In this document: piece after piece, positions 6,401 through 45,946 of the stretch
How the letters are laid out: each line of letters starts with the position of its first letter
How positions within the stretch are numbered: the stretch's first letter is position 1
Source of the DNA: Polyangiales bacterium
GTDB lineage: Bacteria > Myxococcota_A > Polyangia > Polyangiales > Polyangiaceae
Assembly: GCA_038231275.1 (NCBI GenBank)
Contig: JBBRLQ010000038.1
Location: forward strand, 1 to 64,000
Direction: 5' to 3'
Length of the DNA stretch: 64,000 nucleotides
Program-made: the position numbers and the translations under genes
The notes under the pieces: generated by a model
Database searches by the model: none
Told to the model about the DNA's origin: nothing
What the model saw: the letters and a program-made list of their open reading frames with translations, nothing else

Positions 6401-6615
6401 CGCGCGAGGGCTTCGCCAAGGCGCGCGCGCTCCTCGAGCCGCTCACGGAGCGCGCGATCCTGGGGGTCGTTCAGGTGCTCGAGGGACACCTCGACGTGGC
6501 GAGCGGAGAGACCGATGCCGCGTTCGCGCGCCTCGCGGCGGCGGGAGAGGCGCTCTCGGAGAAATCCGAGGACGTCCGCTTCGCGATGCGCTCGCTCGAG
6601 CGACGCCTCCTCTGA
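3442..6615 (+). CDS. Ser/Thr kinase-STAND ATPase-TPR fusion
   Basis: Kinase motifs GSGGGG, VALK, HRDLKPDN, DFG, GTLRYMSPE; then GPGGTGKT, LDNFEH, LDGMPLAIELAAARL; TPRs. Confidence 0.9.
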   Translation: MPLEKGHLIGGKYRIDRLLGSGGGGVVYVAFNVALEKRVALKILSDGTATEIAARRLVLEGIAASRVRHPAIVEVFDAGEHEGSPWLAMELLEGEPLAARMRRAPRMTAAEVTRLGIALAEGLAAAHDAGVVHRDLKPDNVFLCRVADGAMRPKILDFGLARLRSDALERLTQDGAVLGTLRYMSPEQAAGAADVDGRADLYALGVVLFEALTSEHPHEGDTMAARFARLQVAPARDPRALAPDAPEALVRVIEDCLATSPRARPADAHEVSARLGGAPHAPRVDDATGATEDSGGVLPSPTTPFVGRLEDLAALEERFAAGARLVTLLGPGGTGKTRLALRFAERHSREARPRGGVWFCDLSAARSRSELVALVAATLRVPLSLGGSDPVDQIAGALVSRGHLLVVLDNFEHLQPHALETVGAWLAAAPEARFLATSREPLRVTAEERAPLEPLSMAEARELFTSRARVARAGFSLCDADAATLDEILARLDGMPLAIELAAARLSVLSLPQLAARLSERWKLLAGGPPGQPERQRTMRATIDWSWDLLAAWEKSALAQGAVFRGGFDLEAFEGVVDLAEHDAAPWHVDVLQALRDQSLVWARELPAPLAGLRFGLYEAIREYAIEKLSPAPMEATRARHTAHFLGHGERLAALAHGERAADARRRLLLDDANLRAVAERGLAADIPGDAACALFALEPVLAGRAPADLLALVERLVAHPGAARLSPAIEARVLVLRAGLRVLRGDLDLVGADLDRAASLGGPLELAVRVALGRAALLDAQGNFDEAARVATDAVAAARAFDDRRPLAEALDQLSSIKNHQSRLDEARARSEESLAIAEEIGARPLVGISCGSLGKHAVHQQRRGDAVGYYTRALAIARELDDRFAEARHSNNLAIIYHEDRRHALAREHYERSLLLLTELGRRAFQAIALGNLGILEEEHDLSRAHARFGDARRILEEVGDPRLWGWCTAWCAAIDAQRGDLSLAREGFAKARALLEPLTERAILGVVQVLEGHLDVASGETDAAFARLAAAGEALSEKSEDVRFAMRSLERRLL

Positions 6616-9652: not shown

Positions 9653-9724
9653 GCGCCCATCTCTCTAGCCGCAAATCGCCCGAATTTCACCCCTCGCGGC
9701 ACGAAAAGCGCGGCGACTCGAGGC

Positions 9725-14247: not shown

Positions 14248-14336
14248 CGGCCGAGCATACGCGACGGAAAGTCGCAAGCTAGCCCCTACCTGCTTCTTGT
14301 GGTGTCGTGGACGACTCGAAAGACGCCGGAAAAGAG

Positions 14337-26585: not shown

Positions 26586-28370
26586 TCAGTCGCCGAACAT
26601 CTCTCGCGCGACGAGGCCCACGGGAATCGTCCCGTGGGAGAGGACGTCGGCGTGGAAGGCACGAAGCGTGTACTTTGCACCCTCCCGCTGCTTGTAGCGA
26701 TCGCGCATGCGGAAGATGGCCTCGCGCCCGACGATGTACGAGAGCGGCTGCGTCGGCGTCATCGTGTAGCGCTTCACCTCGCCGACAGCGACGACGCGCT
26801 CGAGGTGCACGCGGTCGGTCAGCATCTTCACCGCGTCCTCGAACGTCATGCCCTTCGTGTGGAGACCGACGTCGATGACGACGCGCGCGGCGCGCACGAG
26901 CGTCCATTCGAGCTGCATGAGGCGCTCTTCGTCGGTGTAGTAGCCGAGCTCGTTCATGAGCTCTTCGGAGTAGAGGCCCCACCCTTCGGAGAACGTCGGC
27001 GCGTCCCACAGCTTGCGGATCGTCGACGGGTGGCGGCGACCGAACGACGTCTGGAGATGATGGCCGGGGTACGCCTCGTGCACGGTGGTGTCGACCTGAT
27101 CGCCGTGATCGTTCTCGCGCAGCATCTCCTCTTGCTTGGCCTTGGAGAGCGACGCGTCGACCGGCGTGACGAAGAAGAAGCCCTTCGTGGTGGGATCGAA
27201 CGGCGGCGACTGATCGTACGCGGCGGTGGTGGTGCTGCGGAGGAAGACCGGCGTCTCGATGACCTCGCAGTCATCGCCGGGCGGGAACGGCACCGCGTCC
27301 TTCTCGACGAGGAACGCCCGGGCGCGCGCGAGCTCATGCCTGTACGACGCGAGGAGGTTCGCGGCGGTGGGGTGGTTGCCCTTCACGCGGAGGACGACGT
27401 CGGCCCAGCTCTTGGCCTTCGGATCGATGCGCTTCGCGGTCTCGCCGAGCTGCGTCTCGGTGCGGGCGAGGATTTTTTCGCCGAGGGCGAGGACGGCGTC
27501 GGTGTCCTCGTCGAGGAAGTGGCTGCGGTGGAGGAGAAAGTCGAACGTGGCGCGCCCCGCCGCGAAATTCCCGGTGGAGCGCGGCAGGATCTCCTTCTCG
27601 AGGAACGTCGTGTAGTCGGCGTAGGCCTTCTGCGCGGTCGCGATCGCGGCGTCGACGCGCTTCTTCTCGGCAGGGAGGCCGGCCATGAGCGGCGCGCGCT
27701 GCTCCTCGAAGAACGCCTTCGCACCTTGGGCCATGTCGATGCCCACCTGCGTCCAGACCTTGGGAGGGTTCTTCAGGTTTGCTTTGGCGGCGGCGATCGT
27801 CGCGGGCAATTTTTCCATTCGCTCGAGAGCGTGGGTCGCGCGCTCCGACGCGGGCGCATAGTCACGCGCCGTCATGATGAAGAGCGCGGACATCGGGTTC
27901 GCGTAGTACGCGGGGTTTCGCTCGTGCGGGCGCATCTCGGCCCACGTTCGCTCTTCGACTTCGAGCGTCGCTTCGAGGAGATCGAGATCGGTCCGCGCGG
28001 GGCGCGAGAGGTTGGGGTTCTGCTTCAGCTTGCGGACGCCCTCCAAAACGATCGCGCGCGCCTTTCGCGCCGTCTCGATGCCGGCTGCCGTGCGATCGTC
28101 GAGCACGCCGTCGCGCGCGTGCAGGCCGAGGGTCGTCGCGGTCTCCGGCTCCGTCGTCAGCAGCACGTCGAGGTACGCGCGCGCGAGCTCCTCGACGAGC
28201 GCGTCCTCCCGAGGCGGGGCGGCGGGGATCGCGACCGGAGCGACCGTGGCCGCGGTGCTCGACGGCGGCATCGCGCTCGTCGGAGGAGGGAGCTGCGGCG
28301 GCGGCGGCGACGCGCAGGAGGCGAAGACGAGGACGAGGACCAGGGGAGCGAGGATCGTGGGCGCGCGCAC
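26586..28370 (-). CDS. DUF885 family lipoprotein (metallopeptidase-like)
   Basis: Lipobox FASC; HEAYPGHH, FSEGWGLYSE, RAARVVIDVGLH, PTQPLSY. Confidence 0.9.
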   Translation of the reverse strand: MRAPTILAPLVLVLVFASCASPPPPQLPPPTSAMPPSSTAATVAPVAIPAAPPREDALVEELARAYLDVLLTTEPETATTLGLHARDGVLDDRTAAGIETARKARAIVLEGVRKLKQNPNLSRPARTDLDLLEATLEVEERTWAEMRPHERNPAYYANPMSALFIMTARDYAPASERATHALERMEKLPATIAAAKANLKNPPKVWTQVGIDMAQGAKAFFEEQRAPLMAGLPAEKKRVDAAIATAQKAYADYTTFLEKEILPRSTGNFAAGRATFDFLLHRSHFLDEDTDAVLALGEKILARTETQLGETAKRIDPKAKSWADVVLRVKGNHPTAANLLASYRHELARARAFLVEKDAVPFPPGDDCEVIETPVFLRSTTTAAYDQSPPFDPTTKGFFFVTPVDASLSKAKQEEMLRENDHGDQVDTTVHEAYPGHHLQTSFGRRHPSTIRKLWDAPTFSEGWGLYSEELMNELGYYTDEERLMQLEWTLVRAARVVIDVGLHTKGMTFEDAVKMLTDRVHLERVVAVGEVKRYTMTPTQPLSYIVGREAIFRMRDRYKQREGAKYTLRAFHADVLSHGTIPVGLVAREMFGD

Positions 28371-28384
28371 GCCTCACCATAAAT

Positions 28385-29500
28385 TCAGGTCAGCGCCGCG
28401 TCCACCGTCGCGCGGAAATACCGTGCGGCGAGGTCGACCGTGCGCGCCGAGCTCTCCGGGGTCGGGCCGAGCGGAGGGGCCACCTCGACGACGTCCCCAC
28501 CGACGAGGCCCACGTCGCGCCCGAGGCGCGCGATGAGCTCCATCACGAAGTCCGGCGAGAGGCCGTCCGGCTCCGGAGTTCCGGTCGCGTCGGCCCACGC
28601 GCTGTCGGTGCCGTCGATGTCGTTCGAAAAGTAGACGCCGGAGACGCCGGTGCTCTTCACGTGCGCGACGATCGCGTCGAGCGAGGCGCGCGGATCCTTG
28701 CGGCAGTCCTCCGCCCAGAACTGCCGGACGCCGAGGCGCGACTCCCAGTACGCCCGCTCGTGGCGCGTGGCGCGGATGCCGACCTGCACCATGCGACCGC
28801 CGCGGCCGATGAGATCGTTGGCGTGGAACGACCACGTCGCGAAGCAGTAGCGGACGCCGAGGCGCTCTTCGAGGAGATCGGTGTGCGCGTCGGGCTGGAC
28901 AATTCCGAACCGCTCGCCCCGCTTCGCGAACGCGCGCGCGAGGGCCGCCGAGACGGGCCACGCGACCGAGTGATCGCCGCCGAGGATGAACGGCTTCACC
29001 TTCGGATTGAGCTGAAAAATCAGGTCGAGCGCGCGCTCGGCGATCGACAGCGGCGACACCGGGAGGCGCGCGGCGACGTCCTTGGGGACGCCCGGGTAGA
29101 TGGCGTTGCGCGTCGCGGTCTTCTGCGACTCGGCGAGCATGTCGTCGTGGAGGAGCTGCGGGACGACGAACACGTCGCCGAGATCGACGAGGCCGAGCGC
29201 GCGCGCGTGGGCGGGCCACTCGGGATCGGCGGCGACGAGCGCGGTGCGGATCGCCTGCGGCCCGAGGTTCGCGCCGCGACGGAAGCCGGCGCCGACGTCG
29301 GAGGGAACCGCGAGGACGACGCCGCGCGCGGTCGGGATGCTGGCGAGCGCTGCGGCGAATTTCGCGGCGACGTCTTCCTCGCTCGACGCGCCGTAGATTT
29401 TTCGCTGGAGCGCGAGCTGCTCCGCGCGCCCGGTGGAGACCAGGTAGAGGCCGCCGCCGGCCGGCTTGAGGAGGAGGCCGAGCTCTTCCAGGGGCTGCAT
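28385..29500 (-). CDS. Ureohydrolase (agmatinase/arginase family)
   Basis: GANLGPQAIR, LGGDHS, DAHTD, DIDGTD, DVVEVAP metal-binding motifs. Confidence 0.9.
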   Translation of the reverse strand: MQPLEELGLLLKPAGGGLYLVSTGRAEQLALQRKIYGASSEEDVAAKFAAALASIPTARGVVLAVPSDVGAGFRRGANLGPQAIRTALVAADPEWPAHARALGLVDLGDVFVVPQLLHDDMLAESQKTATRNAIYPGVPKDVAARLPVSPLSIAERALDLIFQLNPKVKPFILGGDHSVAWPVSAALARAFAKRGERFGIVQPDAHTDLLEERLGVRYCFATWSFHANDLIGRGGRMVQVGIRATRHERAYWESRLGVRQFWAEDCRKDPRASLDAIVAHVKSTGVSGVYFSNDIDGTDSAWADATGTPEPDGLSPDFVMELIARLGRDVGLVGGDVVEVAPPLGPTPESSARTVDLAARYFRATVDAALT

Positions 29501-29519
29501 GCCACCTACCTTACTCGAC

Positions 29520-30767
29520 TCACCGCTTGCCGACACGGCGCGCGGCATCCACCACGCCCTGCTCGAACGACGTCACGGTGACCTCGAGCGCCTCGAGCGG
29601 CGTCGGCCTCCTCGTGAGCGACGCCTCGGCCTCGCGCGCGAGCTGCTCGAGCTCTGGATCGCGCGGAAGTCCACGCGCCTGGAGCGCCTTCAGTTGGGCC
29701 ACGCGCGCAGAGAGGCGGCCGCGCAGCTCGTCCTTCTTGGCGCCGAGCCGCTCGGCCTCGGCGAGGACGGCGCGATCGGTCGCGAGGTACTGCGCGCACG
29801 CTTGCTCCCAGCGCGTGAGCCCCACGGCGGCGCTCGGCCAGCGGTGCGCGGCCGCCGTCTGCTCCAGCTTCTCGCGCCACGAGTCGAGGCCGTCGATGAG
29901 ATCGCCGGAGACCAGCTCGGGGAGACGCGCGCCCGCGAACTCGCCGAGGACCGCGGCGCGAACCGCGCGCGCCCGCACATGCGTCTCGCCGAGCTCGCGC
30001 CGGAGGGCCGCCGCCGTGGCGAGCGACGCCGTAACGCGATCCTTTTGCCCCGCGAGCGCCGTGAGCGCGCTCCTGAGCGCGGCGATTCTGCGCGTGAGCG
30101 TCCCTTCGATGCTGCCGGTCGCGCCGAGCGGATCGCGCGCGATCAGGGCGCGCGCGGCCTCGAGTGCACTGGTCACGGCAGCGATCTCTCGCTCCGCCTC
30201 CTTCGCCTCCCCGACGCTCTCCGCCAGCGGGCGCAGCGCCGCGAGCTCGCCTTCCATCCTCTCGAGCGCCGGCTCCAGCGTGGCCCAGGCCCGCTGGACG
30301 GCGAGCACCGCGTCGCGCGCCAGCTCGAACGCCTGCTGCATGGCGCGCAGCAGCTGCTCCGGCGAAACAAGCACCTCTTGCGCCCCGAGATCCAGCAGGC
30401 TCCGCTCCGCGAGGGGCTTCTGCGTCGCGCCCATGTGGATCGACGGCCCGTCGAGGAGCTCGCGGATCTGGCGCAGCTTCTCGTCGTTCCCGAAAAATCC
30501 CAACGTGGAGATCGACGCGCGCAGCCCCTTCGCGCGGACGAACACTTCCTCGAGTCGCTGGCGGGCCTCGAAGAGATCCGCCAGGGCGTCGAGCGCCGGC
30601 GACACGCGCTGGTGGCTGATCCCGTCGAGCGGCGCGCGCTTTCCCGCCGTCCCCGCGAGCATCTGGTAGGTCGGCTCCCCCTCCAGCGCGAGGAGGCTGT
30701 CGTCGACGCGCTTCAGCCACTCGCTCCACGCGGCGAGGCGGGCGTCCACCTCGAGGGCCGTGCTCAC
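29520..30767 (-). CDS. All-helical/coiled-coil hypothetical protein, last gene of the PknG cluster
   Basis: GTG start overlaps the upstream TGA; A/E/L/R-rich helical sequence. Confidence 0.75.
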   Translation of the reverse strand: MSTALEVDARLAAWSEWLKRVDDSLLALEGEPTYQMLAGTAGKRAPLDGISHQRVSPALDALADLFEARQRLEEVFVRAKGLRASISTLGFFGNDEKLRQIRELLDGPSIHMGATQKPLAERSLLDLGAQEVLVSPEQLLRAMQQAFELARDAVLAVQRAWATLEPALERMEGELAALRPLAESVGEAKEAEREIAAVTSALEAARALIARDPLGATGSIEGTLTRRIAALRSALTALAGQKDRVTASLATAAALRRELGETHVRARAVRAAVLGEFAGARLPELVSGDLIDGLDSWREKLEQTAAAHRWPSAAVGLTRWEQACAQYLATDRAVLAEAERLGAKKDELRGRLSARVAQLKALQARGLPRDPELEQLAREAEASLTRRPTPLEALEVTVTSFEQGVVDAARRVGKR

Positions 30768-32113
30768 GCGTCGTACTCCTTGAGGCGCGCGCGTAGGCCG
30801 AGCCACGTGAGCAGGGCGATGAGGATCGCGAACGCCGGGTCCATCAGCTCGGCGCGCCGCAGCATCCCGTCGCCGTCCTCGATCACGCGATCGAACTCGG
30901 TCCGGTTGATGTGCACGACCCCGGCGAGCGCCTGATCGAACCGATCGAAGGCGGCGTTCGACTCGTGCTGCCCGGAGCCGATGCACAGCTGCACGGCCTG
31001 GTCGTGCTTCCCCGACTGCTCGAGCTTGCGGATCCGCTGGTCGATGTTCCAATAGCCCCGAAACGCGCGCGTCATCTCCAGCGCGGCGGCCCGCTCGCCG
31101 GGGACCGTGACGTTGTGAAGCTCGTCGGCGAAGAGGCCGCGATCAGGCGTCTCCTTCTCCGGCGTCGAGGTGAGGTCGGTCACGCGGCCTACGAACGACG
31201 CCTCGTGGAATGGCGCGTTGGTTCGATCCAGCAGGTACCGGCTCTCGTCGCCGTTGGCGTCGTAGGCGATCGCGCGAGCGCGCCACAAGAGGTGGATTGA
31301 CTCGAACGCGTCTTCCTTGGCGACCTTCAGGTCCTGTCGCGCGGCGCCGAAGCCGTGCACGAGATCGGCGGTGAAGCCGATGGCGAGGAGCGTGGCGATG
31401 AGGATCGGCGGGTTGATGATGCGCCGCGTGCGGCGGAGCAAGAAGAGCTGCAGCGCGACGAGCACGGCGGCGAGCCCTCCGCCCACGACGACGGCGATAC
31501 CCTCGGCGCCCGAGCTCGCGCGCTTCTGGTCGGAGTAGACGTCGTCCATGTACGTGCGGTTCGCGGAGTCGAGCTGGAGCGCCGCGTTCAGGATCTTCGC
31601 GTGCATCAGCGACGTGGCCGCGCGGTAGGTCTCGATCGCGCCGCGCAGATCGCCGGTGTCGTAGCGGTAGCGGGCCTCGGCGAAGATCTCGAGGTAGCGC
31701 CCGAGCTCCTGGATCATCGTCAAAATGGGCTGTTTTTCCGCGTCGCCGTACGTGATGTTCTGCGCGGCGTCGACGAGTCGCGTCGTGGCCTGGACACGCC
31801 TTTTCTCGAACGACGCCATCGCCTCGGCGCGGTGCTGGGCGTTTCCGATGAGGTAGTTGGCCGCGTTGGAGTCGAGATCGGCGAGGGACGAGTTGATCTC
31901 CTGGGCGGCGATGATCGACGGCGCGCTGTCCCTGCCGATCGTCTTCATCGCGGCGCGGGCGCGGCCGAGGGTGCCTTCTCCGGCGATGAAGAGGAGGGCC
32001 GCGAGCGCCCACACCACGATCTGGTACGCGCGCATCCGTCGCGGCGTGGACCATGCGCCGTCAGGGAGGCCGGTCTTCGCGCCGGCGACCGCGGAGGTGG
32101 ACGTCGTCGTCAC
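30764..32113 (-). CDS. GlnX-like membrane protein (4 TM, two extracytoplasmic helical bundles)
   Basis: STPRRM-TM...APSIIAAQEINSSLADLDSNAANYL...TM-RRTRRIINP-TM...LGLRARLKEY. Layout and terminal motifs resemble actinobacterial GlnX as I recall them. Confidence 0.75.
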   Translation of the reverse strand: MTTTSTSAVAGAKTGLPDGAWSTPRRMRAYQIVVWALAALLFIAGEGTLGRARAAMKTIGRDSAPSIIAAQEINSSLADLDSNAANYLIGNAQHRAEAMASFEKRRVQATTRLVDAAQNITYGDAEKQPILTMIQELGRYLEIFAEARYRYDTGDLRGAIETYRAATSLMHAKILNAALQLDSANRTYMDDVYSDQKRASSGAEGIAVVVGGGLAAVLVALQLFLLRRTRRIINPPILIATLLAIGFTADLVHGFGAARQDLKVAKEDAFESIHLLWRARAIAYDANGDESRYLLDRTNAPFHEASFVGRVTDLTSTPEKETPDRGLFADELHNVTVPGERAAALEMTRAFRGYWNIDQRIRKLEQSGKHDQAVQLCIGSGQHESNAAFDRFDQALAGVVHINRTEFDRVIEDGDGMLRRAELMDPAFAILIALLTWLGLRARLKEYDA

Positions 32114-32826
32114 GGGCGCGCCCTCACGAGGATGCGCGTCCACCTTCCGACGCACACTTCGTCGCCGGCGACGAGCGGAGTGCGCGAGCCGGAGGGGACC
32201 TCGAGCCCGTTCACCTTGGTGCCGTTCGTCGACGCCAGATCGAGCAGGACGAGGGTGCCATCGGCGGCGAGGACGAACTTCGCATGGCGACGCGACGTGC
32301 CGGGATCTTGGACCGGGAGCTCGGGGTGAATGTCGCGCCGCTCGTCGCGCCGGCCGACGAGGAGCTCGGCGCGATCGACGGGCACCACCACCGCGGGCAC
32401 GTCCTTCGGACACGGCGACTCCGGATCGGGCTCGGTGTCGAGCGCCGGATCGATCGAGACGACGAGCTCGAAGTGAATGGCGGCGGCCTGCGCAGAGGCC
32501 GCCGCCGATGCAGCGACAGGAACAGGCGGTGCGGGCGCCGAAGTCGCGCCTCCCGCGGGAGGCGGCCCTGGACGACCCGCGACGAAATCGAAGCGGCACA
32601 CCTCGCAGAAGCGCGCGTCGGGCTCCGCGCGCGGCTCGGCGCACTCTGGGCAGGTGTTGGGCAAGCCCTTGCGAACGGAGGCAGGCAGCGGCGTGATGCG
32701 CTCGGCGAGCTGCGGCGACCCGGCAGCCTTCCCGGCGGCGGGCGCGCCCATCGCGACGCCGCATACCGAGCAGTAATCGGGCTCGTCGGAGGCGTGCCCA
32801 GCGCGGCAGACCAAGCCGCCGCTCAT
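32110..32826 (-). CDS. Double zinc-ribbon plus FHA domain protein
   Basis: CRAGH..CSVC, CPEC..CEVC; FHA motifs VGR, SRRHA, DLASTNGT; overlapping start/stop on both sides. Confidence 0.9.
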   Translation of the reverse strand: MSGGLVCRAGHASDEPDYCSVCGVAMGAPAAGKAAGSPQLAERITPLPASVRKGLPNTCPECAEPRAEPDARFCEVCRFDFVAGRPGPPPAGGATSAPAPPVPVAASAAASAQAAAIHFELVVSIDPALDTEPDPESPCPKDVPAVVVPVDRAELLVGRRDERRDIHPELPVQDPGTSRRHAKFVLAADGTLVLLDLASTNGTKVNGLEVPSGSRTPLVAGDEVCVGRWTRILVRARP

Positions 32827-34109
32827 TTCTTGTGCACGCGCTTGGTGGTCCGCGACTCCAGCTCCAGATCCATCGTGGCCGCCTTGGCCGCGTCCTTCTT
32901 CAGCCGCACCGTGCCTGCCGCAGCGTCGACGACGTCGACCACCTTCTTCAAGCGCTGCGTCATCTCGGTGTTGCCCGAGGCGTGCGCGATCTTCACCGCC
33001 TTGCCGAGGAGCTGCGTCGCGTGCCCTTCGTCGCCGCGCGCGCGAAGCTCGAGCCCTTGCTGAATGGCCTCCGCGAGCTCCCCTTGCCCGGTGTAGTGCG
33101 CGACGTGGTGATCGATGCGCGACGAGAGCGAGTCGTCGGCGGTCCACGACGCGAAGAGGCGCGCCTCCGCCGACTTGTCCTCTTGCTCGACCCAGCCGCT
33201 GCCGCCCCACTGGAGGTAGGCGATCGACGGACGACCCGAGAGCATCTCCTCCCCCTCGTGGCCTTGCTTCACGTCGATCGCGACATGAAAATCGCGCGAC
33301 TCGCCGGCGCCCCACGCGCCTGTGTTGTACTCGCGGATCTGCGCGGACACGGTGCGTGCCTTGTTCGTCATCTCGTCGATCGTCGGATTCACCTGCTTCA
33401 CGAAGACGACAGAAGCCCCCTGCGGCGTCCACAAGCGGAGGCGCACGTCCTTCAGCGATTTGCTGCTCGCCTGGTGCATCGCCGCCTGGAACGCCGCCTC
33501 GATGCCGTGCGGCTCGGGGATGAGCGACGCTTTGCCGAGCAGAGCGCTCGAGATCTCCTGCACCTCGCCGACGCGCCAATCGGTGCCGACGCCCCAGCAG
33601 TCGCACTCGAAGATGCCCTCGCACTTGCCGAGGATGGCCTTCACGTGGCCAGGCTCCTCCGACTCGTTCTTGCCGTCGGTGAGGAAGATGGCCTCGCGGA
33701 TCGCGTCGGGCGCGCGGTTCATGATGGCGAGCGCGGCGGCGAGGCCGGTCGACATCGCGGTGCCTCCGCCGGCGCTGAGCGCATGGATGGCTTGCGCGGC
33801 GGATTGCTTGCTGGCGGCGGAGGCCTTGGTTTCGCGGACCAGCACCTGCGCGGTGGAGTCGAAGACGACGACGAAGAACCAGGTTCGCTCGTCGAGCATC
33901 GAGATCGCTTGGGTGACCGCGCGCTTCACCCCCTCGATGCGGTCGCCGGCCATCGAACCCGATTTGTCGATGATGAAGCCGACGACGAGCTGGCTCGAAA
34001 GCGACGACGCGCCGACGCCGTCTCCCGCGGTCACCGACACGATGGCGTCGACGCGGTTCTGTCCGGGCGGCAAAAAGCGGTTCTGGAACGCCTCGATCTT
34101 GAAGGCCAT
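32823..34109 (-). CDS. von Willebrand factor A domain protein
   Basis: MIDAS DKSGS, GGTAM, FLTDG. Confidence 0.92.
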   Translation of the reverse strand: MAFKIEAFQNRFLPPGQNRVDAIVSVTAGDGVGASSLSSQLVVGFIIDKSGSMAGDRIEGVKRAVTQAISMLDERTWFFVVVFDSTAQVLVRETKASAASKQSAAQAIHALSAGGGTAMSTGLAAALAIMNRAPDAIREAIFLTDGKNESEEPGHVKAILGKCEGIFECDCWGVGTDWRVGEVQEISSALLGKASLIPEPHGIEAAFQAAMHQASSKSLKDVRLRLWTPQGASVVFVKQVNPTIDEMTNKARTVSAQIREYNTGAWGAGESRDFHVAIDVKQGHEGEEMLSGRPSIAYLQWGGSGWVEQEDKSAEARLFASWTADDSLSSRIDHHVAHYTGQGELAEAIQQGLELRARGDEGHATQLLGKAVKIAHASGNTEMTQRLKKVVDVVDAAAGTVRLKKDAAKAATMDLELESRTTKRVHKK

Positions 34110-34130
34110 GGCCCCTACTCTACGCTCGGT

Positions 34131-35828
34131 CTAGCGACTTTCCGAGTGTCGGTAGACAGCGACGGAGACGTTGTCGCCCCCTCCACGATAAAGCGCGTTC
34201 GCGACGAGGCGCCGCGCGATGGCGACGCAGCCGGCGTCTTGCCCCGCGGAGGCGACCAGATCGGCGATCGTGCGCGCGTCCGGGAAATAGTTCCAGAGGC
34301 CGTCGGTGCAGAGGAGCACGTGGCCGGCACCGGGGAGATCGCGGGCGCGCACGTCCGGCTGCACGGTGGCGAACTGCTCGTCGGTGTCCCCGCCCTCGAG
34401 GGGACCGAGGCAGCGCGTGAGGGCGTGCGCGAGGGGCTGCTGCATCGCGGCCTCCTCGCTCATCTCGCCGCGCGCGACGATCTCTTGCGCCCACGAGTGG
34501 TCGCGCGTCAGGAGCTCGCTGCCGTTTTTTCCGATCCAGTACGCGCGGCTGTCGCCCACCCAGCCGACGGTGAGGCGACGACGGTACACGAGGCCGGCGA
34601 CGATCGTGGTGCCCGGCGGCTCCTTGGTGCCGTGCTCGATCTGCGCGGAGCAGACGGCGAGGTGCGCGGCGCGGATCGCCGCGTGCATCGCGCTCGTCGC
34701 GGCTTCGTGCGCGATGTCACCGGACCGGGCAAAATGGGCGAGCGCGTCGCAGGCGGTCTTCGAGGCGAGGCCCGACGCCTGCTCCGCGTGCGTCGAGCAC
34801 GAGACGCCATCGCACACGACGAGGACCGTCCACGGCTCGCCTTTGGTCTCGCCGCTCGCGACGGCGACCGCGTCCTCGTTGTGATCGCGCTTCAGTCCGC
34901 CGTCACACAACGACGCGATGTGAAGCGGTCCCGCCGGGGCGCGCGTCAGCTCGTCCTCGACGGCGTCGAGGGCCGCGCGGATGACGTCGGCGTCGCGGAG
35001 CTCGTGCGGCGCGTCGAGACCGGGGCCCGCGAAGAGACGGAACAGCGCCGGTGTGCCTCCGAGCGCGGGCGCCGGGAGGAGCGACCGACCAAACGCCGCG
35101 ATCGGGCAGCACGCATCGGCGCGACCGCCGTCGAGACGCGCCGCGCGAACGCGCGAGAGCGCGAGGCGACCGCTCGCGAGATGAAAATCCGTCTGGCGCG
35201 GCGTCCACCGCAGGCCCGCGCGCTCGAGCGAGATCGTCAGCGCGAGCACCTCACGCGCGAGGCCGAGCCCCGCGGCCATCGTAAGCTCGGGCGCGGCGTC
35301 GGCGAGCACGATTGCGCCGGGCGGCGTCGCGGAAAGGATGAGGTAAGCCCCCCTGCGCGCGTCCTCGCCGGTGTCGAGGAGCTTGGGCGCGGCGGGGTGC
35401 CCGGCGAGCGCACGCGTCGCTTCCGCCTCGTCGGCGAGGATCGCCGCGTCGCAGACCGCGAGGATCACTTCGTCGCCGTTCGTCGCGGTCGCCGTCACGT
35501 CGTCGGACGCGCGCGCGCCGGTCACGACGCAGCCGCCGACCGTCGCGCCGGGCGGGAGGATCGAGATCGTCATCCGTGAATCGAGCCGGTTGCCGCACGC
35601 GTTGCAGTACCCTTCGCCGTCGTCCGTGTTCGGCCGGTTGCACGACGCGCAGAGGGACGTGGGCGCCATGGTCGGCGCGTCCCGTACCATCTCGGAGAGA
35701 TCGGGCGCGCTCATCGCCGCGGGGCTCACGGATACCCGCGACTCGCTCTCCACGAGGCGGCCGCCATCGAGCTCGCAGAACACGTCGTCCTCCCCGTACG
35801 GAGCGTCGCAAGTGGGGCAGCGCTTCAC
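34131..35828 (-). CDS. PP2C/PPM phosphatase with N-terminal zinc ribbons and a degenerate kinase-like region
   Basis: CPTC..CELD, CASC..CNAC; RDHNEDA, VCDGVS, WVGDSRAY, TRDHS, LCTDGLW, GGGDNVS. Alternative ATG at 35837. Confidence 0.88.
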   Translation of the reverse strand: MKRCPTCDAPYGEDDVFCELDGGRLVESESRVSVSPAAMSAPDLSEMVRDAPTMAPTSLCASCNRPNTDDGEGYCNACGNRLDSRMTISILPPGATVGGCVVTGARASDDVTATATNGDEVILAVCDAAILADEAEATRALAGHPAAPKLLDTGEDARRGAYLILSATPPGAIVLADAAPELTMAAGLGLAREVLALTISLERAGLRWTPRQTDFHLASGRLALSRVRAARLDGGRADACCPIAAFGRSLLPAPALGGTPALFRLFAGPGLDAPHELRDADVIRAALDAVEDELTRAPAGPLHIASLCDGGLKRDHNEDAVAVASGETKGEPWTVLVVCDGVSCSTHAEQASGLASKTACDALAHFARSGDIAHEAATSAMHAAIRAAHLAVCSAQIEHGTKEPPGTTIVAGLVYRRRLTVGWVGDSRAYWIGKNGSELLTRDHSWAQEIVARGEMSEEAAMQQPLAHALTRCLGPLEGGDTDEQFATVQPDVRARDLPGAGHVLLCTDGLWNYFPDARTIADLVASAGQDAGCVAIARRLVANALYRGGGDNVSVAVYRHSESR

Positions 35829-35900
35829 TACCCTCATGGTACCCCAGAGCGCTGCGCCCATGTGTTCGCGTCGCGACGGGGGTGGATCTACGATGACCCA

Positions 35901-36185
35901 ATGGCCGGCGAGCTTCAGCACGTGGATGACGACGGCCCCGCGCGGTGCAGCTTCTGCCCTCGCGAGGCCGCCGGGCCGTGCGCGTCGTGCGCGAGGCCGG
36001 TCTGCGGCGACTGCTGCACGTTGACCGAAGGCGGCGTGCGCGTATGGGCGGTGTGTTTGGAGTGCGACCGCAAGAAGGGACGCTCGCTCGCCGGCGCCTG
36101 GAGCGGCCTCCTCGTCTGGCTCGTCGGAATCCTCGTCGTCCTTGGCGCGGCGACGGCGCTCATGGGCTGGCTCGCCGGCCGCTGA
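35901..36185 (+). CDS. Small B-box-like zinc-finger protein with a C-terminal TM anchor
   Basis: CSFC..CASC..CGDC..CLEC, then a hydrophobic helix; TACGAT 6 nt before ATG. Confidence 0.75.
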   Translation: MAGELQHVDDDGPARCSFCPREAAGPCASCARPVCGDCCTLTEGGVRVWAVCLECDRKKGRSLAGAWSGLLVWLVGILVVLGAATALMGWLAGR

Positions 36186-36192
36186 GCATTTT

Positions 36193-36216
36193 TCCTAGAC
36201 GACCTCCTAGACGACC
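36193..36216. repeat. 12-bp tandem duplication covering the stop codon of the PknG-like gene
   Basis: TCCTAGACGACC at 36193-36204 and 36205-36216. Confidence 0.85.
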
Positions 36217-38417
36217 GTGAGCGGCCTGACCTCGTTCGCGCGATCGACGAACGCGTGGCGCTCTCCGTCAGTCCCCGCGATGCGCGCGCACGTGCGGTAC
36301 TCGTGCTCGGCGGCGAGCTGGAGATCGGCGCGCACGAACGGCACTTTGAGGAGCGCGACGTTGGTGAGGCCCGCCGTCGCGCCCAGGTTCTTGGCGCCTG
36401 CTGCGAGGAGGTCTGCGCGCAGGACGTGGAGATCGAGACCGTCGGTGAGGCCCTCGAGCGACTCGATCGCGAGGCTCGCCTGCACCATCTCGTCGACCGT
36501 CGGCTCCGCGCTCTTCGGGTGGAGCAGCAGGCGCGCGAGCGCCATTTGCGCGTGCGGGTAGCGGCTCGAGGTCGGGGGCACGCGACGGTACGCGGCGGCG
36601 GCGCCCGCGCGATCGCTGGTCTGCTCGAGGCAGCGCGCGAGGCCCAGCGCGGCGCTCACGAACGACGAGTCGGCGCGCGAGACGGCGTCGTAGTACGTGA
36701 TCGCGTCGGAGAACTTGCCGGCCTGCTCGTACGTGCGCGCGAGCGCCTGCCGCGGCGCGAGCTCGCCGGGGAGCTCGTCCAGGATCCCTTGGAACGCCGC
36801 GAGCGTCTCTTGCACCTTTCCCTGCGCGAGCAGCGCGCGTCCGCGGTACCACGCGACGCGCCAGTCGGTGGGGTTCGCCTTCTGCACCTCGGCCAGGAGC
36901 GCCTCGCCGTGCGCGAATTTCCCCAGCGTGACGAGCTCGTCGACGAGGCGCAGCTTCAGCTCGAACGAGTCCGGGTGCTGCTTGAGCGCGCGCTCGAACA
37001 TGAGGCGCCGCCGCTCCGGATCGCCCACTGCCCCCGCCGCGAGGATGACATTCGCCGCCGCGTCCGCCTTGTCGACCTTGAGGTGCGGCACACCGTCGAC
37101 GCGGTTCTGCCTCGCCGAGTCCGACGTCAAGCGATCGCTGTCGGGCTCGAAGAGGGAGCTCTCGACGCGCCCGAGATCGCTGGTCTCACCGAGGATCGTG
37201 TAGAGGACGCCGACGAGCTGCTCGGCCATCTCCCCGGCGTTCTGGAAACGCTCCTCCGCCTTCGGCCTGGTGGCCTTCAAGAGGAAACGGTAGAGCGCTT
37301 CGTTCTGCTTCCAGACGTCGCACTCCTCGGGAGGCGGGAGAGACGTCTCGTACTTTCCCTGAAAATCGAAATTGGCGACGAGCACCGCGAGCGCGCGGCC
37401 GGCGCTGTAGAGATCGCTCACGGGCGTCGGCGCGTCGTGGGCCTCGGGCGCGGTGTAGCCCTTGCTCCCGTAGATGTCGCCGCCCTGTGCGTCGACGGGC
37501 CGCACGGCGCCGAGATCGATCAGCTTGACCGTCTCCTCCTCGACCATGACGTTCTCGGGCTTGAAATCGCAATACACGAGGCCCATGTCGTCGAGGTAGC
37601 CGAGGGCCGGGAGGATCTCCGCGATGTAGGAGATCGCCTCGGCCACCGGGAGTGGTCCGCCGCGCTCCTTGCGGAGGGTCATCAGCGTCTTGCCGTTGAC
37701 GCACTCCATCGCGATGAAGCCCTCTTCGCCGCGCGTGACGAAGTCGTAGATGCCGACGATGTTCGGGTGCTTCACCGCCGCGAGGAACTCGCGCTCCTGC
37801 ACCGCGACCTCGAGCATCCGCGGATCCTTCGAGTTGAGGAGTCCCTTGAGGATGACCCATCGGTTGAGGACGGTGTCGAGCGCGAGGTAGATCCAGCCGA
37901 GGCCGCCGAACGCGATCGTCCCCTTGATCTCGTATTTTTCGGAGACGAGGTCGCCGGGATCGAGCGTCGGTTTGAACGAGTACTCCTGGCCGCACTTCGG
38001 GCAGAAGCCGTTCTCCCGTTTGAGCTGAGCGTCGCATCCCGAGCAGAAGCGCTTTCGCTCCGGGACGACGCCGGGGACGATCGACGCCATCGGATCGAGC
38101 GGGGGGAGCGGAGGACGCGCCAGCGGTCGGGAGCCGACCGCGCGCGTGCCGGTGCGTCCAGAGCGCGTGGAGCCCGAGCGCGTCGAGCGCGTGCTGCGCG
38201 CGCTTCGTCCGCTGCGCGTCGACGGCGTGCGGCCCGAGCCGGTGCGACCAGAGCCGGGCGTCGTGCGACCGCTCGGCGACGGGGCAGGCGTGGCCGGCAT
38301 CGGCGCGGTGTGCGGCGAGGTCTTGCCCGCGGCGGCCCCGGCGGGCGCCATTCCGCACGCGTCGCAGTAGCCGTCCTCGATCGTTCCCTTGCAACCGGGC
38401 TTTGCACAGCTCGCCAT
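36207..38417 (-). CDS. pknG: PknG-like Ser/Thr kinase (rubredoxin-like, kinase, TPR)
   Basis: PERKRFCSGC..GFCPKCGQEYSF, GGLGWIYLA, VILKGLL, LVYCDFKPEN, KLIDLGAV, PGELAP, C-terminal ANEVRP. No TM segment. Confidence 0.88.
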   Translation of the reverse strand: MASCAKPGCKGTIEDGYCDACGMAPAGAAAGKTSPHTAPMPATPAPSPSGRTTPGSGRTGSGRTPSTRSGRSARSTRSTRSGSTRSGRTGTRAVGSRPLARPPLPPLDPMASIVPGVVPERKRFCSGCDAQLKRENGFCPKCGQEYSFKPTLDPGDLVSEKYEIKGTIAFGGLGWIYLALDTVLNRWVILKGLLNSKDPRMLEVAVQEREFLAAVKHPNIVGIYDFVTRGEEGFIAMECVNGKTLMTLRKERGGPLPVAEAISYIAEILPALGYLDDMGLVYCDFKPENVMVEEETVKLIDLGAVRPVDAQGGDIYGSKGYTAPEAHDAPTPVSDLYSAGRALAVLVANFDFQGKYETSLPPPEECDVWKQNEALYRFLLKATRPKAEERFQNAGEMAEQLVGVLYTILGETSDLGRVESSLFEPDSDRLTSDSARQNRVDGVPHLKVDKADAAANVILAAGAVGDPERRRLMFERALKQHPDSFELKLRLVDELVTLGKFAHGEALLAEVQKANPTDWRVAWYRGRALLAQGKVQETLAAFQGILDELPGELAPRQALARTYEQAGKFSDAITYYDAVSRADSSFVSAALGLARCLEQTSDRAGAAAAYRRVPPTSSRYPHAQMALARLLLHPKSAEPTVDEMVQASLAIESLEGLTDGLDLHVLRADLLAAGAKNLGATAGLTNVALLKVPFVRADLQLAAEHEYRTCARIAGTDGERHAFVDRANEVRPLTVV

Positions 38418-43420: not shown

Positions 43421-45946
43421 CTACTTGCAGCTCACGCGCGCGGCGTACACCTCGACGTGGCGCTCCTCGTTGTCCTGCCAGGCCACGAGCCACTCGCCCT
43501 TTTGCTTGCCGCCGGCGAGCCACGGCCTCGGCTGATCGCCGGAGACCTTGGCGAGGATGCTGATGCCGCTCGTGTCGGGGACGTCGCGCGTGAGGATGCG
43601 CATGCGGATGCGATCCTTCTCGTAATAGGCGACAGCGACCTGGCCGTCGCTCACGGCAAGCGCGGGGCGCCCCCCCTGCGGCGCGAGGCGCTTGTGCCAC
43701 ATGAGGTTGCCCTTCACCGGATCGATGAGCGCCGCGTACGCGCCGCCAGGCCCGGCCTCCGCGTGCCACGCGACGAAGCAGCCCTCGGTTCCGCACGCGA
43801 TCGACGGCGCGTCGCCGGAGACCTTGTCCTCGCTCATCGGCTTCACGTCGCCGATCAGGCGATCGCGCCGCGATACGCCGCCGTTCACGTCGTCGAGCCC
43901 CTTCTTGAGCTCAGGGGCCGAGAGCGGGATGCGGATGCGCTCGATGGTGTGGACCGTGTCGCGCTCGAGCTTGTACGCGACGTAGATGACGTTCGACGCC
44001 ACCGCGATGCTCGGCAGGCGAAGCTGCGGCAGGCGCGATCGGATCGGCGCGAAATCGGTGGCGCGGATCTCGGGGCCGATCGGTTCGAGCTCGGGGCTCA
44101 GATGGCGGAGGAAGAGATCGTCGCCGTCCTTGTCGCGATCGTCCTCCCACGCGACCCAGAAGCCGTCGGGCGCGCGATCGATGACGGGCCACGTCGTCTT
44201 GCTGGGACGCGACGCGCCGACGAGCACGCTCGGGCCGCCGATGCGCCCGTCGGCGTCGAGCCAGCGGACGCGGACGCCGGCTTCGCGACCGCTCTTGTCC
44301 CAATAGAGGAGGAGGGTGCGATCGCCGGCCGCCAAGAGCTGCGGGCGCTCGACGTCGTCGGCCTCGGGCGTGAGGTCACGCGGGCGCGAGAGCGGGCGGC
44401 CGTTCGCGTCGATGACCACGGAGTACGCGTGATCGTGGCCGGCTTGCTCGTGATCGTCGGTCCAGGTGACGATCGGTCCCTTCGAGCTCAGCGCGATCGA
44501 CGGGCGCTGCGCGTTGCGCTCGATGCCGAGACGCGGGCGCGAGAGGGCGGCCACCGAGCACGGGCCCGACGGCTTACTGGCGATGTCGATCTGCGCCGAG
44601 AGCCCCTTCGCCGCGCCGCCCGCGCCGGCCTCCCCTGCCTCCTTCAGCTTTCGCTGCGCGCCGAGCACGTCCTTCTGCGCGAAGAGCGCGAGCCCCTCGG
44701 CGAGCAGCGGCGCCCACTTCGGCTCTTCGCCGACCGGGAGGGGAAAACCCGCGCCGCCCGACGGGATCGTGGTGGCCGACGACATGACGGTCGGCGTGAA
44801 GACTTGGGGCCGCAGGTGCTTCATCCACACGAAGAACGCGGCGCCCATCGCGATGGCGAGCGCGATCGACGACATCGCGTACCGCAGCGGGCTGGGACGG
44901 GCCGGCGGCGGCGGATCGGTCGACATCTCCACCGGCGCGCCGTTCGCGGCGACGAGCGGGACCGGCGGGTTGTTGGAGTGTCGCTGAGGATCGTCGGGGT
45001 TGTACGGCGCGAAGTGTGGCGACGCCTCGTTGCCGCTCACGAGCGAGACGCTGGAGCTCGAGCCGAACGACTGCGCGAGGGCCTCCGCGAGCTCTTTCGC
45101 GCTCTGGTAGCGGCGATCGGGTTCGCGCTCCATCGCCTTCTTGAACCACTCGTCGAAGGCCGGCGGCAGGTCGGGGCGGATCTTCGAGGGGATCGGGATC
45201 GGCGCGGTCGCGATCGCCGCGAACGTCATCGCGACGCCCTGATCGGTGTTCCACACCGGACGCCCGATGAGGCACTCGAACGCGAGGCACCCGAGGGCCC
45301 ATAGGTCCGCGCGGTGATCGACGGAGTGCTGCCCCTTCACCTGCTCGGGCGACATGTACGCGGGAGTTCCGAAGACGGCCCCCTCGCGCGTGAGGCGCTT
45401 CTCTTTCTCGTCCGGCTGCACCGGCGCGTAGAACTTGGCGAGGCCGAAGTCGAGGAGCTTCGCGATCTCCTCGCCGTCCTCGCCCTTCACGAGGAAGATG
45501 TTCTCTGGCTTGAGATCGCGATGGATGACGCCGGCCGCGTGGGCCTTCATGAGGCCCTTCGCGCACTGGGCGATGACGCGCACCGTCGTCCGCGGATCGA
45601 TGAGGCGCACGCGCGCCATGCGATCGTAGAGCGACTCGCCTTCGAGCAGCTCCATCGCGATGAACGGGCGTCCATCCTCGAGCCGGCCGGAGTCGTACAC
45701 GTCGACGATGTGGGGGCTCTTCACGCTCGCGGCCGCGCGTGCTTCGCGGAAGAAGCGCTCGATGACGATCGTGGAGGCGGCGAGCTCGGAGGCGAGCACC
45801 TTCACGGCGATGCGCTTGCCGAGCGACATGTGCTCGGCTTCGTACACGGCCGCCATTCCCCCTCGGCCGATCTCCCGAGTGACACGGTACTTGCCGACCA
45901 GGGTCGTCCCGACGGGGATTTTGGATTCGTTCGGGATCGCGGGCAT
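43421..45946 (-). CDS. Transmembrane Ser/Thr protein kinase with a large extracytoplasmic beta-rich domain
   Basis: GRGGM, IAVK, HRDLKPEN, DFG, GTPAYMSPE; one TM helix; C-terminal propeller-like repeats. Confidence 0.92.
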   Translation of the reverse strand: MPAIPNESKIPVGTTLVGKYRVTREIGRGGMAAVYEAEHMSLGKRIAVKVLASELAASTIVIERFFREARAAASVKSPHIVDVYDSGRLEDGRPFIAMELLEGESLYDRMARVRLIDPRTTVRVIAQCAKGLMKAHAAGVIHRDLKPENIFLVKGEDGEEIAKLLDFGLAKFYAPVQPDEKEKRLTREGAVFGTPAYMSPEQVKGQHSVDHRADLWALGCLAFECLIGRPVWNTDQGVAMTFAAIATAPIPIPSKIRPDLPPAFDEWFKKAMEREPDRRYQSAKELAEALAQSFGSSSSVSLVSGNEASPHFAPYNPDDPQRHSNNPPVPLVAANGAPVEMSTDPPPPARPSPLRYAMSSIALAIAMGAAFFVWMKHLRPQVFTPTVMSSATTIPSGGAGFPLPVGEEPKWAPLLAEGLALFAQKDVLGAQRKLKEAGEAGAGGAAKGLSAQIDIASKPSGPCSVAALSRPRLGIERNAQRPSIALSSKGPIVTWTDDHEQAGHDHAYSVVIDANGRPLSRPRDLTPEADDVERPQLLAAGDRTLLLYWDKSGREAGVRVRWLDADGRIGGPSVLVGASRPSKTTWPVIDRAPDGFWVAWEDDRDKDGDDLFLRHLSPELEPIGPEIRATDFAPIRSRLPQLRLPSIAVASNVIYVAYKLERDTVHTIERIRIPLSAPELKKGLDDVNGGVSRRDRLIGDVKPMSEDKVSGDAPSIACGTEGCFVAWHAEAGPGGAYAALIDPVKGNLMWHKRLAPQGGRPALAVSDGQVAVAYYEKDRIRMRILTRDVPDTSGISILAKVSGDQPRPWLAGGKQKGEWLVAWQDNEERHVEVYAARVSCK

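Follow-up and report, generated by a model that had tools for sequence, protein, structure and literature searches.

A six-gene PknG/GlnX-type phospho-signalling module in a Polyangiales bacterium and its relatives in other bacterial phyla

Work on the kinase PknG and the membrane protein GlnX has been confined almost wholly to Actinobacteria, in which PknG is important for metabolism and for the survival of mycobacteria. A cluster of six genes on a contig of a Polyangiales bacterium (JBBRLQ010000038.1, assembly GCA_038231275.1; the 64,000 nucleotides analysed here are called the window) encodes a PknG-like kinase and a GlnX-like membrane protein, together with a PP2C phosphatase, a vWA protein, an FHA protein and a helical protein. 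This raises the question of whether a myxobacterium has taken over an actinobacterial circuit or carries a system of wider distribution. Our analysis leads us, with moderate confidence, to prefer the second answer: the cluster is probably the myxobacterial copy of an old, widespread six-gene Ser/Thr phospho-signalling module and not an actinobacterial import, and its products would form a transmembrane switch, a mechanism that we infer.

The six proteins of the cluster

Since the G+C content of the window is about 70%, genes were called by third-position GC and start-codon context. All six cluster genes were found on the minus strand, spanning 29520-38417 (Table 1), as an earlier sequence-only reading of this DNA had described. 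Its view that the last four genes are translationally coupled agrees with the junctions, where stop and start codons overlap as ATGA between the vWA and FHA genes, as GTGA between the FHA and GlnX-type genes, and again as GTGA between the GlnX-type and helical genes. The PP2C and vWA genes are separated by a spacer of 21 nucleotides (nt). The start codons of the GlnX-type and helical genes agree with the conserved N-terminal motifs in their alignments. Hydropathy analysis revealed four hydrophobic segments in the GlnX-type protein and zero in the other five cluster proteins.

By sequence, the kinase belongs to the PknG family. An N-terminal zinc ribbon is followed by a Ser/Thr/Arg-rich linker, a rubredoxin-like domain with two CxxCG-type motifs, a kinase domain (Pfam Pkinase, 101.9 bits) and a PknG-type TPR domain, and the PknG_rubred and PknG_TPR profiles both passed their cut-offs. 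The best match in the PDB was Mycobacterium tuberculosis PknG (2pzi_A, a 681-residue construct) with 372.6 bits, aligning query residues 94-734 to chain residues 5-679, and the window kinase's TPR domain aligned with the TPR part of this structure. In contrast, the best non-PknG kinase reached about 83 bits, PknB-type kinases scoring about 83 or less. In an alignment of 22 module kinases (A3), C4, C9, C18, C21 and G22 of the zinc ribbon are invariant, as are C125, C139 and C142 of the rubredoxin-like domain, with C128 nearly so. K191, E208, D284, N289 and D301, which we take to be the catalytic residues on the basis of familiar kinase motifs, are invariant as well. The grouping with PknG that the sequence-only reading had claimed is supported by these results.

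The same holds for the claimed similarity of the membrane protein to GlnX. The NCBIfam model NF058618 ('GlnX family signal transduction membrane protein') gave 288.8 bits against a cut-off of 250 and aligned residues 22-447 with profile positions 2-412 of 413. The equivalog model for the protein kinase G-activating protein GlnX (NF041460) gave 69 bits against a cut-off of 780, though the match was full-length, and 4HB_MCP_1 matched weakly at 19.7 bits, under its cut-off of 27. Homologues of the protein carry Pfam PF28326. Since both NF058618 and PF28326 exist, the wider GlnX family is already known to database curators. Hydropathy placed transmembrane segments at residues 31-50, 205-227, 236-255 and 422-440, which leaves two periplasmic domains of about 155-165 amino acids (aa) each and very short cytoplasmic parts. 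The C-terminal tail carries a PR-x-x-EY motif. R443, E446 and Y447 are invariant in the GlnX-type alignment (A1), and the motif is kept in 69 rows, including the classical GlnX proteins of Tsukamurella and Nocardia (L085, L086).

The vWA and FHA proteins are encoded next to each other, the FHA gene overlapping the stop codon of the vWA gene. The vWA protein consists of a vWA domain with a complete metal-ion-dependent adhesion site (MIDAS), a middle domain and a C-terminal helical domain (Pfam VWA and VWA_3_C), and it matched PDB 4fx5_A over its full length with 249.2 bits (query 3-425, chain 31-461). Across 46 family members, conservation extends to the MIDAS residues D48, S50, S52, T117 and D144 and to several Thr positions near the C-terminus. 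The FHA protein is built of two zinc ribbons, a Pro/Ala-rich linker and an FHA domain; the Pfam FHA match scored 44.1 bits, and the match to a double zinc ribbon was weak. Among 57 family members, the zinc-ribbon residues C7, H11, C19 and C22 and C59, C62, C75 and C78 are conserved, and so are the phosphothreonine-binding motifs GR, SxRH and NGT, which are intact in the window protein. The OdhI model NF041660 gave only 25.4 bits against a cut-off of 200, and judged by its sequence the window FHA protein is not GarA/OdhI-like. FraH of Anabaena is a zinc-ribbon, Pro-rich FHA protein as well; our literature search gave no paper on it. By our own reading of the sequences, the motif D-G-Y-C-x-x-C-G is common to the N-terminal zinc ribbons of the kinase, the PP2C and the FHA protein, and for this reason we suggest that these ribbons form a shared docking site.

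The PP2C protein comprises two zinc ribbons, a kinase-fold domain without catalytic motifs and a PP2C domain. The latter matched Pfam PP2C_2 and PP2C and also NF033484 (138 bits, profile positions 2-231 of 232), and it is a good match to Stp1-type phosphatases; the best PDB matches were bacterial PP2Cs. N-terminal zinc ribbons are present in 42 of the 43 PP2Cs examined. For the N-terminal region Pfam gave the zinc ribbons alone, and BLASTP against the window kinase gave no match; the kinase fold is visible by structure prediction only. The AlphaFold2 model of this region had a pLDDT (predicted local distance difference test) score of 79.5 from a 3-row alignment. When it was compared with the PDB by Foldseek, at least 500 matches were obtained at E<=0.001, and among the matches listed all were kinase or kinase-homology domains. 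PknG (4y0x) ranked first (9e-7), and the kinase-homology domain of Rv3910, the structure of which was solved together with an FHA domain (3oun), ranked second. Equivalents of the beta-3 Lys, HRD and DFG elements were not seen when the sequence of the kinase-fold domain was read against what we assume to be the standard kinase motifs, and because these catalytic motifs are lacking the domain is predicted to be a pseudokinase. The PP2C is about 250 residues longer in the window and in loci L001 and L023 of the survey described below than in the other loci. PP2Cs of other phyla measure about 290-420 aa, mostly 310-350, and carry no pseudokinase-like domain. The PP2C of the myxobacterial lineage has gained this predicted pseudokinase domain.

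The helical protein could not be placed in any family of Pfam, NCBIfam or PADLOC. The sequence-only reading had called it a coiled coil; AlphaFold2 predicted an all-helical bundle with two small hairpins at a pLDDT of 91.4. A comparison of this fold with the PDB gave nothing at E<=0.001, the best match being the cytoplasmic domain of EzrA (E 0.34, TM-score 0.35). A protein atlas search returned unnamed clusters (0.97) and again EzrA (0.82), which is a weak lead only. In a library of 1.84 billion clusters at 50% identity, 2079 representatives were found at E<=0.001 and 839 at E<=1e-30, and 22 orthologues were aligned (A2). The protein thus represents an undescribed family of about 2000 representative clusters, usable as a marker of the module. 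Four matches of odd length or split form were examined for fusions; one had a partial M48 peptidase match and three had none. A relationship to TelA was rejected at a profile-profile probability of 0.14. Prediction of a complex between the helical protein and kinase residues 155-736 scored 0.00, an outcome that speaks neither for nor against an interaction.

Table 1. Positions of the cluster genes, of selected domains and of adjacent genes in the window
Feature	Position	Strand	Details
PknG-family Ser/Thr kinase	36207..38417	-	736 aa, soluble; Pfam, PDB alignment
N-terminal zinc ribbon of kinase	38352..38408	-	residues 4-22; Cys 4/9/18/21; ends DGYCxxCG
Rubredoxin-like domain of kinase	37962..38114	-	residues 102-152; PF16919, 31.5 bits (cut-off 28.5)
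PknG-type TPR domain of kinase	36216..37079	-	residues 447-734; PF16918, 176.3 bits (cut-off 27), profile 49-340/340
PP2C phosphatase	34131..35837	-	568 aa; Pfam and NCBIfam
Pseudokinase-like domain in PP2C	34908..35570	-	residues 90-310; AlphaFold2 and Foldseek
vWA protein	32823..34109	-	428 aa; Pfam, PDB 4fx5_A match
FHA protein	32110..32826	-	238 aa; Pfam, conserved motifs
GlnX-family four-transmembrane protein	30764..32113	-	449 aa; NF058618, hydropathy
Cytoplasmic C-terminal tail of GlnX-family protein	30767..30793	-	residues 441-449, RARLKEYDA; PR-x-x-EY motif
Helical protein	29520..30767	-	415 aa, soluble; no described family
Intervening small gene	35901..36185	+	94 aa, Cys-rich, C-terminal membrane anchor; outside the module
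Arginase-family gene	28385-29548	-	agmatinase/formimidoylglutamase-like; under every equivalog cut-off
DUF885 gene	26586-28370	-	downstream of the cluster, same strand

Conservation, gene order and phylogeny

Related loci were sampled by scanning an alignment of 20 GlnX-type proteins over one genome per species. The pattern was matched by 106 stretches, 82 of which encode a relative, and 80 loci were kept; many of those without the full set are short contigs. With the window proteins as tblastn queries, all six genes were found together, and always on one strand, in 42 of the 80 loci. Because the same set recurs in this way, the grouping far exceeds what chance would give. When a profile of the helical protein was used, three more loci (L015, L076 and L036) were added and the count rose to 45, and the co-conservation that the sequence-only reading had expected was thereby established. 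Among the 35 loci flanked by at least 7 kb on both sides, 26 carry all six genes. The remaining nine consist of five lone GlnX-type genes, two bare pairs of a GlnX-type and a PknG-type gene in Undibacterium (L039, L053), which lie amid two-component and cyclic di-GMP genes, the five-gene Myxococcota locus L023, and the four-gene locus L041 of Pseudanabaena biceps, in which the module ends after the GlnX-type gene. In L041 a DDE transposase gene (14184-15776) is found roughly 3 kb downstream of GlnX, on the side on which other Pseudanabaena loci carry the helical and kinase genes.

These counts bear on the simplest rival explanation, namely that the six genes are adjacent in this genome without working together. 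Ser/Thr kinases are numerous in myxobacterial genomes, the window itself encodes two more of them, and a gene on the opposite strand sets the cluster kinase apart from the rest. This gene occupies the gap of 370 nt between the kinase and PP2C genes and encodes a conserved protein of 94 aa; its GC content by codon position is 0.68/0.60/0.88, and it has 246 homologues at E<=0.001, mostly of 94 aa, the named ones coming from Labilithrix metagenome-assembled genomes. The protein has a hydrophobic segment at residues 61-93, read as a C-terminal transmembrane helix, and a weak match to a B-box zinc finger (E 0.046). The gene is not present in the related module loci compared, and a terminator-like hairpin lies at its end. 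Because of its position, the window kinase is probably transcribed apart from the other five genes. However, 45 of the 80 loci, drawn from many phyla, keep the six genes on a single strand, and overlapping stop and start codons join four of the genes. For practical purposes the synteny survey refutes mere adjacency, to which we give almost no weight.

Complete modules carry the labels Cyanobacteriota, Acidobacteriota, Armatimonadota, Betaproteobacteria, Clostridia, Thermodesulfobacteriota, Sericytochromatia and Actinomycetota, and the module was found in at least 8 phyla. All six genes are present in the isolate genome of Nonomuraea gerenzanensis, and the locus most closely related to the window (L001) is labelled Myxococcales. 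Together with the Labilithrix homologues of the small intervening gene, this label makes the myxobacterial origin assumed in the sequence-only reading a reasonable one. A locus labelled Actinomycetota (L075) has a PspA-like neighbour gene with a product 73% identical to that of Granulicella; several of its module genes look frameshifted, and the contig may be mis-binned.

Three gene orders were observed in the 42 loci: helical-kinase-PP2C-vWA-FHA-GlnX in 25, vWA-FHA-GlnX-helical-kinase-PP2C in 15, and PP2C-vWA-FHA-GlnX-helical-kinase in 2. These, and the order in the window, are all rotations of one circular order, kinase-PP2C-vWA-FHA-GlnX-helical. In every complete locus vWA, FHA and GlnX are adjacent in that order and unbroken. 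The rotations could have arisen from tandem duplication followed by trimming, or through a circular intermediate. Two smaller arrangements were also seen. In the Nitrospirae locus L060 (9944-12112) a GlnX-type sensor is fused to a SpoIIE/PP2C phosphatase, and in Chromobacterium (L074) a divergent gene of the solute-binding family SBP_bac_3 (8937-9794) adjoins a lone GlnX-type gene (9851-11215).

We then asked where the window proteins fall among their relatives. In a quick maximum-likelihood tree, the PknG-like kinases were separated from the two other window kinases with a Shimodaira-Hasegawa-like approximate likelihood-ratio test (SH-aLRT) value of 100, these two being the only outgroup rows. 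The module kinase of Nonomuraea grouped with two classical PknGs (99), within a larger clade that also holds Acidobacteriota and Cyanobacteria (98), and the window kinase joined Armatimonadota (86). Forcing it into the actinobacterial clade, a group that was named after the free tree had been seen, cost 14.4 log-likelihood units and was not rejected by the approximately unbiased (AU) test (p-AU 0.069), so that the kinase tree alone is not decisive. In the GlnX tree, a long branch sets classical GlnX apart from every one of the 76 module-type proteins, the window protein belongs to a Myxococcota clade (100), and the phylum labels need 8 changes for 9 groups, which is the minimum possible. GlnX-type genes of Streptomyces and Embleya (L082-L084) stand alone beside unrelated transport and KdpD genes; in the tree their proteins join the Nonomuraea copy, a long-branch join that may be false. 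Identity between the window and Nonomuraea proteins is 33% for the GlnX-type protein and 36% for the vWA protein, compared with mostly 30-46% and 40-50%, respectively, for most other phyla, Myxococcota being closer. The window proteins are nearer to the versions of Armatimonadota, Cyanobacteria and Acidobacteriota than to the actinobacterial ones, which are among the most distant.

These data can be set against the rival explanation that the cluster is an actinobacterial-type GlnH-GlnX-PknG-GarA circuit, acquired horizontally, which senses amino acids and controls glutamate/2-oxoglutarate metabolism through its FHA protein. Such a circuit would account for true PknG and GlnX homologues, and it draws further support from the arginase-family gene that follows the cluster in the window and in L001, from the solute-binding protein gene beside the GlnX-type gene in the Chromobacterium locus, and from the AU test, which leaves a grouping of the window kinase with actinobacterial kinases unrejected. 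However, neither the cluster nor the remainder of the window encodes a GlnH-like solute-binding protein (SBP_bac_3), the FHA protein does not pass the OdhI model and has zinc ribbons at its N-terminus, the GlnX equivalog cut-off is missed by a wide margin, and classical GlnX forms the most distant branch. Moreover, the window proteins lie nearer to non-actinobacterial versions, and the arginase-family gene is next to the module only in the window and L001 among the related loci compared. We therefore consider this explanation quite improbable.

Taken together, the sequence-only reading was right about the kinase, the membrane protein and the conservation of the set, and none of the three findings that it had named as grounds for abandoning it (a kinase outside PknG, no GlnX similarity, no co-conservation) was made. 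Its description of the circuit as actinobacterial-type and devoted to glutamate metabolism was not supported, given the lack of GlnH, the OdhI and GlnX equivalog scores and the separate branch of classical GlnX. It had left two origins open, horizontal sharing with actinobacteria and an 'older, wider system'. Because of the many phyla, the GlnX tree, in which the proteins cluster by phylum, and the percent identities, the second of these is preferred, with the reservation that the AU test does not reject an actinobacterial grouping of the kinase. The available text of Lisa et al. 2021 (PMC8546545) describes PknG orthologues as 'mostly restricted' to Actinobacteria and mentions homologues in Ktedonobacter and Calothrix; the taxon sampling given there lists neither Proteobacteria nor Myxococcota.

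The chromosomal setting of the cluster is ordinary. The genes birA and nadC lie upstream, the arginase-family and DUF885 genes lie downstream, and proS, dnaJ, uvrD and two further Ser/Thr kinase genes are found elsewhere in the window. A UvrA-like protein of 1793 aa with repeated ABC ATPase and UvrA domains is encoded at 48145-53526 (+), and an NB-ARC/TPR protein and the two Ser/Thr kinases (one with AAA and TPR domains) are encoded at 709-3384 (+), 3442-6615 (+) and 43421-45946 (-).

A proposed switch and its possible output

How might the six proteins work together? We propose that the tandem periplasmic helical domains of the GlnX-family protein would read a periplasmic or envelope signal, and that this signal would reach the kinase through the tiny cytoplasmic face of the sensor. 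A link between sensor and kinase is suggested by the homology to GlnX and PknG, by the two-gene pairs of Undibacterium and by the fusion of a GlnX-type sensor to a SpoIIE/PP2C phosphatase in Nitrospirae. Because the cytoplasmic face is so small and the PR-x-x-EY tail is conserved even in classical GlnX, this tail is the best candidate for a peptide that enters the groove of the kinase TPR domain. An action of GlnX on the TPR domain of PknG has been proposed, and according to the accessible parts of these papers the functional link is backed by genetics and by a requirement for the TPR domain (PMC6069109, PMC8546545). The interaction itself is called 'not demonstrated yet' in the available text of PMC9769921. 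The module offers hundreds of natural variants and several harmless, culturable carriers, such as Granulicella rosea DSM 18704, Undibacterium jejuense KACC 12607, Paraherbaspirillum soli, Pseudanabaena biceps PCC 7429 and Nonomuraea gerenzanensis, for work on this link, and it singles out one specific candidate contact, the invariant tail of the sensor.

The kinase may then autophosphorylate on its Ser/Thr-rich N-terminal linker and phosphorylate the vWA protein on conserved Thr residues of its C-terminal helical domain and its tail. The FHA protein would bind these phosphothreonines and tighten the vWA-FHA complex, as in archaeal ArnB-ArnA, and the PP2C would reset the switch. The shared zinc ribbons may gather writer, eraser and reader at one hub. 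We read the pair as an ArnB/ArnA-like switch because the vWA protein is related to 4FX5 over its full length and is encoded beside an FHA protein with zinc ribbons.

As to the output, the neighbours of the module in some lineages provide a hint. In 16 loci with the vWA-first order, a TelA gene is the immediate upstream neighbour of vWA (e.g. L017, 6447-7658); these loci are labelled Betaproteobacteria, Geobacteraceae, Syntrophobacter, Clostridiaceae and Nitrospiraceae, and the three products tested all passed PF05816. A PspA/IM30-like gene follows the GlnX-type gene in 9 Acidobacteria-type loci (e.g. L024, 11452-12225). On account of these neighbours, our leading guess is that the module serves a membrane or envelope stress response rather than the control of glutamate metabolism.

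The TelA genes also bear on a second rival explanation, in which the cluster is a stress or anti-phage module of the TerY-P type and its vWA-PP2C-kinase triad acts as a guard switch that senses metal or infection, a role that has been proposed for triads linked to Ter genes and shown for some triads that stand alone. A TerY-P link had been part of the sequence-only reading. The three domain types of the triad (TerY-like vWA, PP2C and Ser/Thr kinase) do occur together in the cluster, the MIDAS metal site of the vWA protein is intact, TelA is a protein of the Ter system, and TerY-P triads are described as stress- and defence-linked in the available sections of PMC11090510. In contrast, the triad kinase has a C-terminal zinc ribbon or OB fold according to the same sections, whereas the module kinase has a C-terminal TPR domain and an N-terminal zinc ribbon. 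In PADLOC, the vWA, FHA, GlnX-type and helical proteins matched no model, and the kinase and PP2C gave only generic matches. Nuclease or other effector genes are not among the conserved neighbours of the module, the window neighbours are housekeeping genes (birA, nadC, proS), and the GlnX-type proteins cluster by phylum and not patchily. Hence the TerY-P link stands in so far as TelA adjoins the module in some lineages and fails in the defence models, and we regard a guard switch of this type as unlikely.

Several observations count against the envelope-sensing module that we favour. Every step from signal to output has been deduced from homology and gene order. The GlnX-type gene stands alone in 5 of the 35 well-flanked loci, in the Myxococcota locus L023 the 6 kb upstream of the PP2C gene contain no kinase gene, and in the window itself a gene on the opposite strand parts the kinase from the other five genes. 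Some of the taxon labels belong to metagenome bins and are possibly wrong, as for L075. The PspA-like match, at 32.4 bits, falls just below the Pfam cut-off of 33.9; since neither TelA nor PspA is encoded in the window, the stress reading may not apply to its lineage. Finally, ArnA and ArnB themselves were not among the matches of the PDB sequence search, and the link to them consists of one 4FX5 match and a published structural comparison.

Comparison with known systems

No description of the six-gene module was found in the literature, in a search that did not cover the founding TerY-P paper (Anantharaman et al. 2012), which may already mention a variant. Among described systems, one of the closest is the GlnH-GlnX-PknG-GarA/OdhI system of Mycobacterium and Corynebacterium. 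The module has a homologous kinase that aligns end to end with PknG and a homologous sensor, predicted to have four transmembrane segments and two periplasmic helical domains, with the PR-x-x-EY tail, and in both systems an FHA protein is the likely reader of the phosphorylation by the kinase. They differ in that the module has no GlnH. A Tsukamurella record shows the classical order glnX-glnH-pknG, and a Nocardia record contains a classical kinase; in related loci of the module, the helical protein fills the slot between glnX and pknG that glnH occupies in Tsukamurella. The gene for the FHA protein of the module lies within the cluster, and this protein does not pass the OdhI model. It has zinc ribbons at the position where the N-terminus of GarA is a phospho-acceptor segment. 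The vWA, PP2C and helical proteins have no counterpart in the classical operon, the module sensor misses the GlnX equivalog cut-off, and the module occurs far beyond Actinobacteria.

A more far-reaching possibility, which we put forward tentatively and hold to be somewhat doubtful, is that PknG/GlnX signalling descends from this six-gene set as its ancestral form. The set would be a pan-bacterial envelope-sensing switch, its core of a 4FX5-type vWA protein and an FHA protein with zinc ribbons would correspond in bacteria to archaeal ArnA-ArnB, and GlnH-GlnX-PknG-GarA would be a stripped-down offshoot. If so, GlnH took the slot of the helical-protein gene, and the zinc-ribbon FHA/vWA pair gave way to GarA, a free FHA protein. 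The zinc ribbon on kinase, phosphatase and FHA protein would then be a common docking tag to one hub, and the rotated gene orders would be the trace of an operon that was repeatedly duplicated in tandem and trimmed, or of circular intermediates.

Two bacterial systems resemble the module in domain content. In the PpkA-PppA-Fha1 system of Pseudomonas type VI secretion, a kinase, a PP2C, an FHA protein and a vWA domain form one Thr-phosphorylation switch. That system is part of a secretion-gene cluster and its vWA domain lies within the kinase PpkA (PMC1262709), whereas no secretion genes are present in the window. The DRA0331-DRA0334 operon of Deinococcus radiodurans likewise unites vWA, kinase, FHA and PP2C types, a likeness in domain content only, and its FHA protein is phosphorylated in vitro by the operon kinase, as stated in the accessible part of the preprint (bioRxiv 10.64898/2026.01.23.701218). 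According to the same text, however, the kinase has three C-terminal transmembrane helices and no TPR domain, the PP2C has a KI-FHA domain and the gene order differs; a GlnX-type sensor and a helical protein are not reported in that part.

For the vWA-FHA core, the comparison leads to archaea. PDB 4FX5 (Caci_2163 of Catenulispora acidiphila, from structural genomics) is a full-length homologue of the window vWA protein, so that the family has a solved structure; no functional study of it was found in the literature. As the available text of Hoffmann et al. 2019 (PMC6509490) reports, 4FX5 shows the same tripartite build of vWA domain, beta-sandwich and four-helix bundle as vWA2, a paralogue of Sulfolobus ArnB, and it is through 4FX5 that the likeness of the module to ArnA-ArnB of Sulfolobus acidocaldarius runs. 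In that system, the same text states, ArnA, a protein with a zinc finger and an FHA domain, binds the phosphorylated C-terminal helix bundle of ArnB. Phosphorylation of the vWA C-terminus thus drives FHA binding, and kinases (ArnC/ArnD) and a phosphatase (PP2A) act on the pair, an arrangement like the one proposed here. The archaeal kinases and phosphatase come from different families, no GlnX-type sensor is described alongside them, and their output, archaellum expression, has no counterpart in the module. Collectively, these comparisons suggest that bacterial PknG/GlnX and archaeal ArnA/ArnB, which have been studied separately, may be tied into one scheme by the six-gene module.

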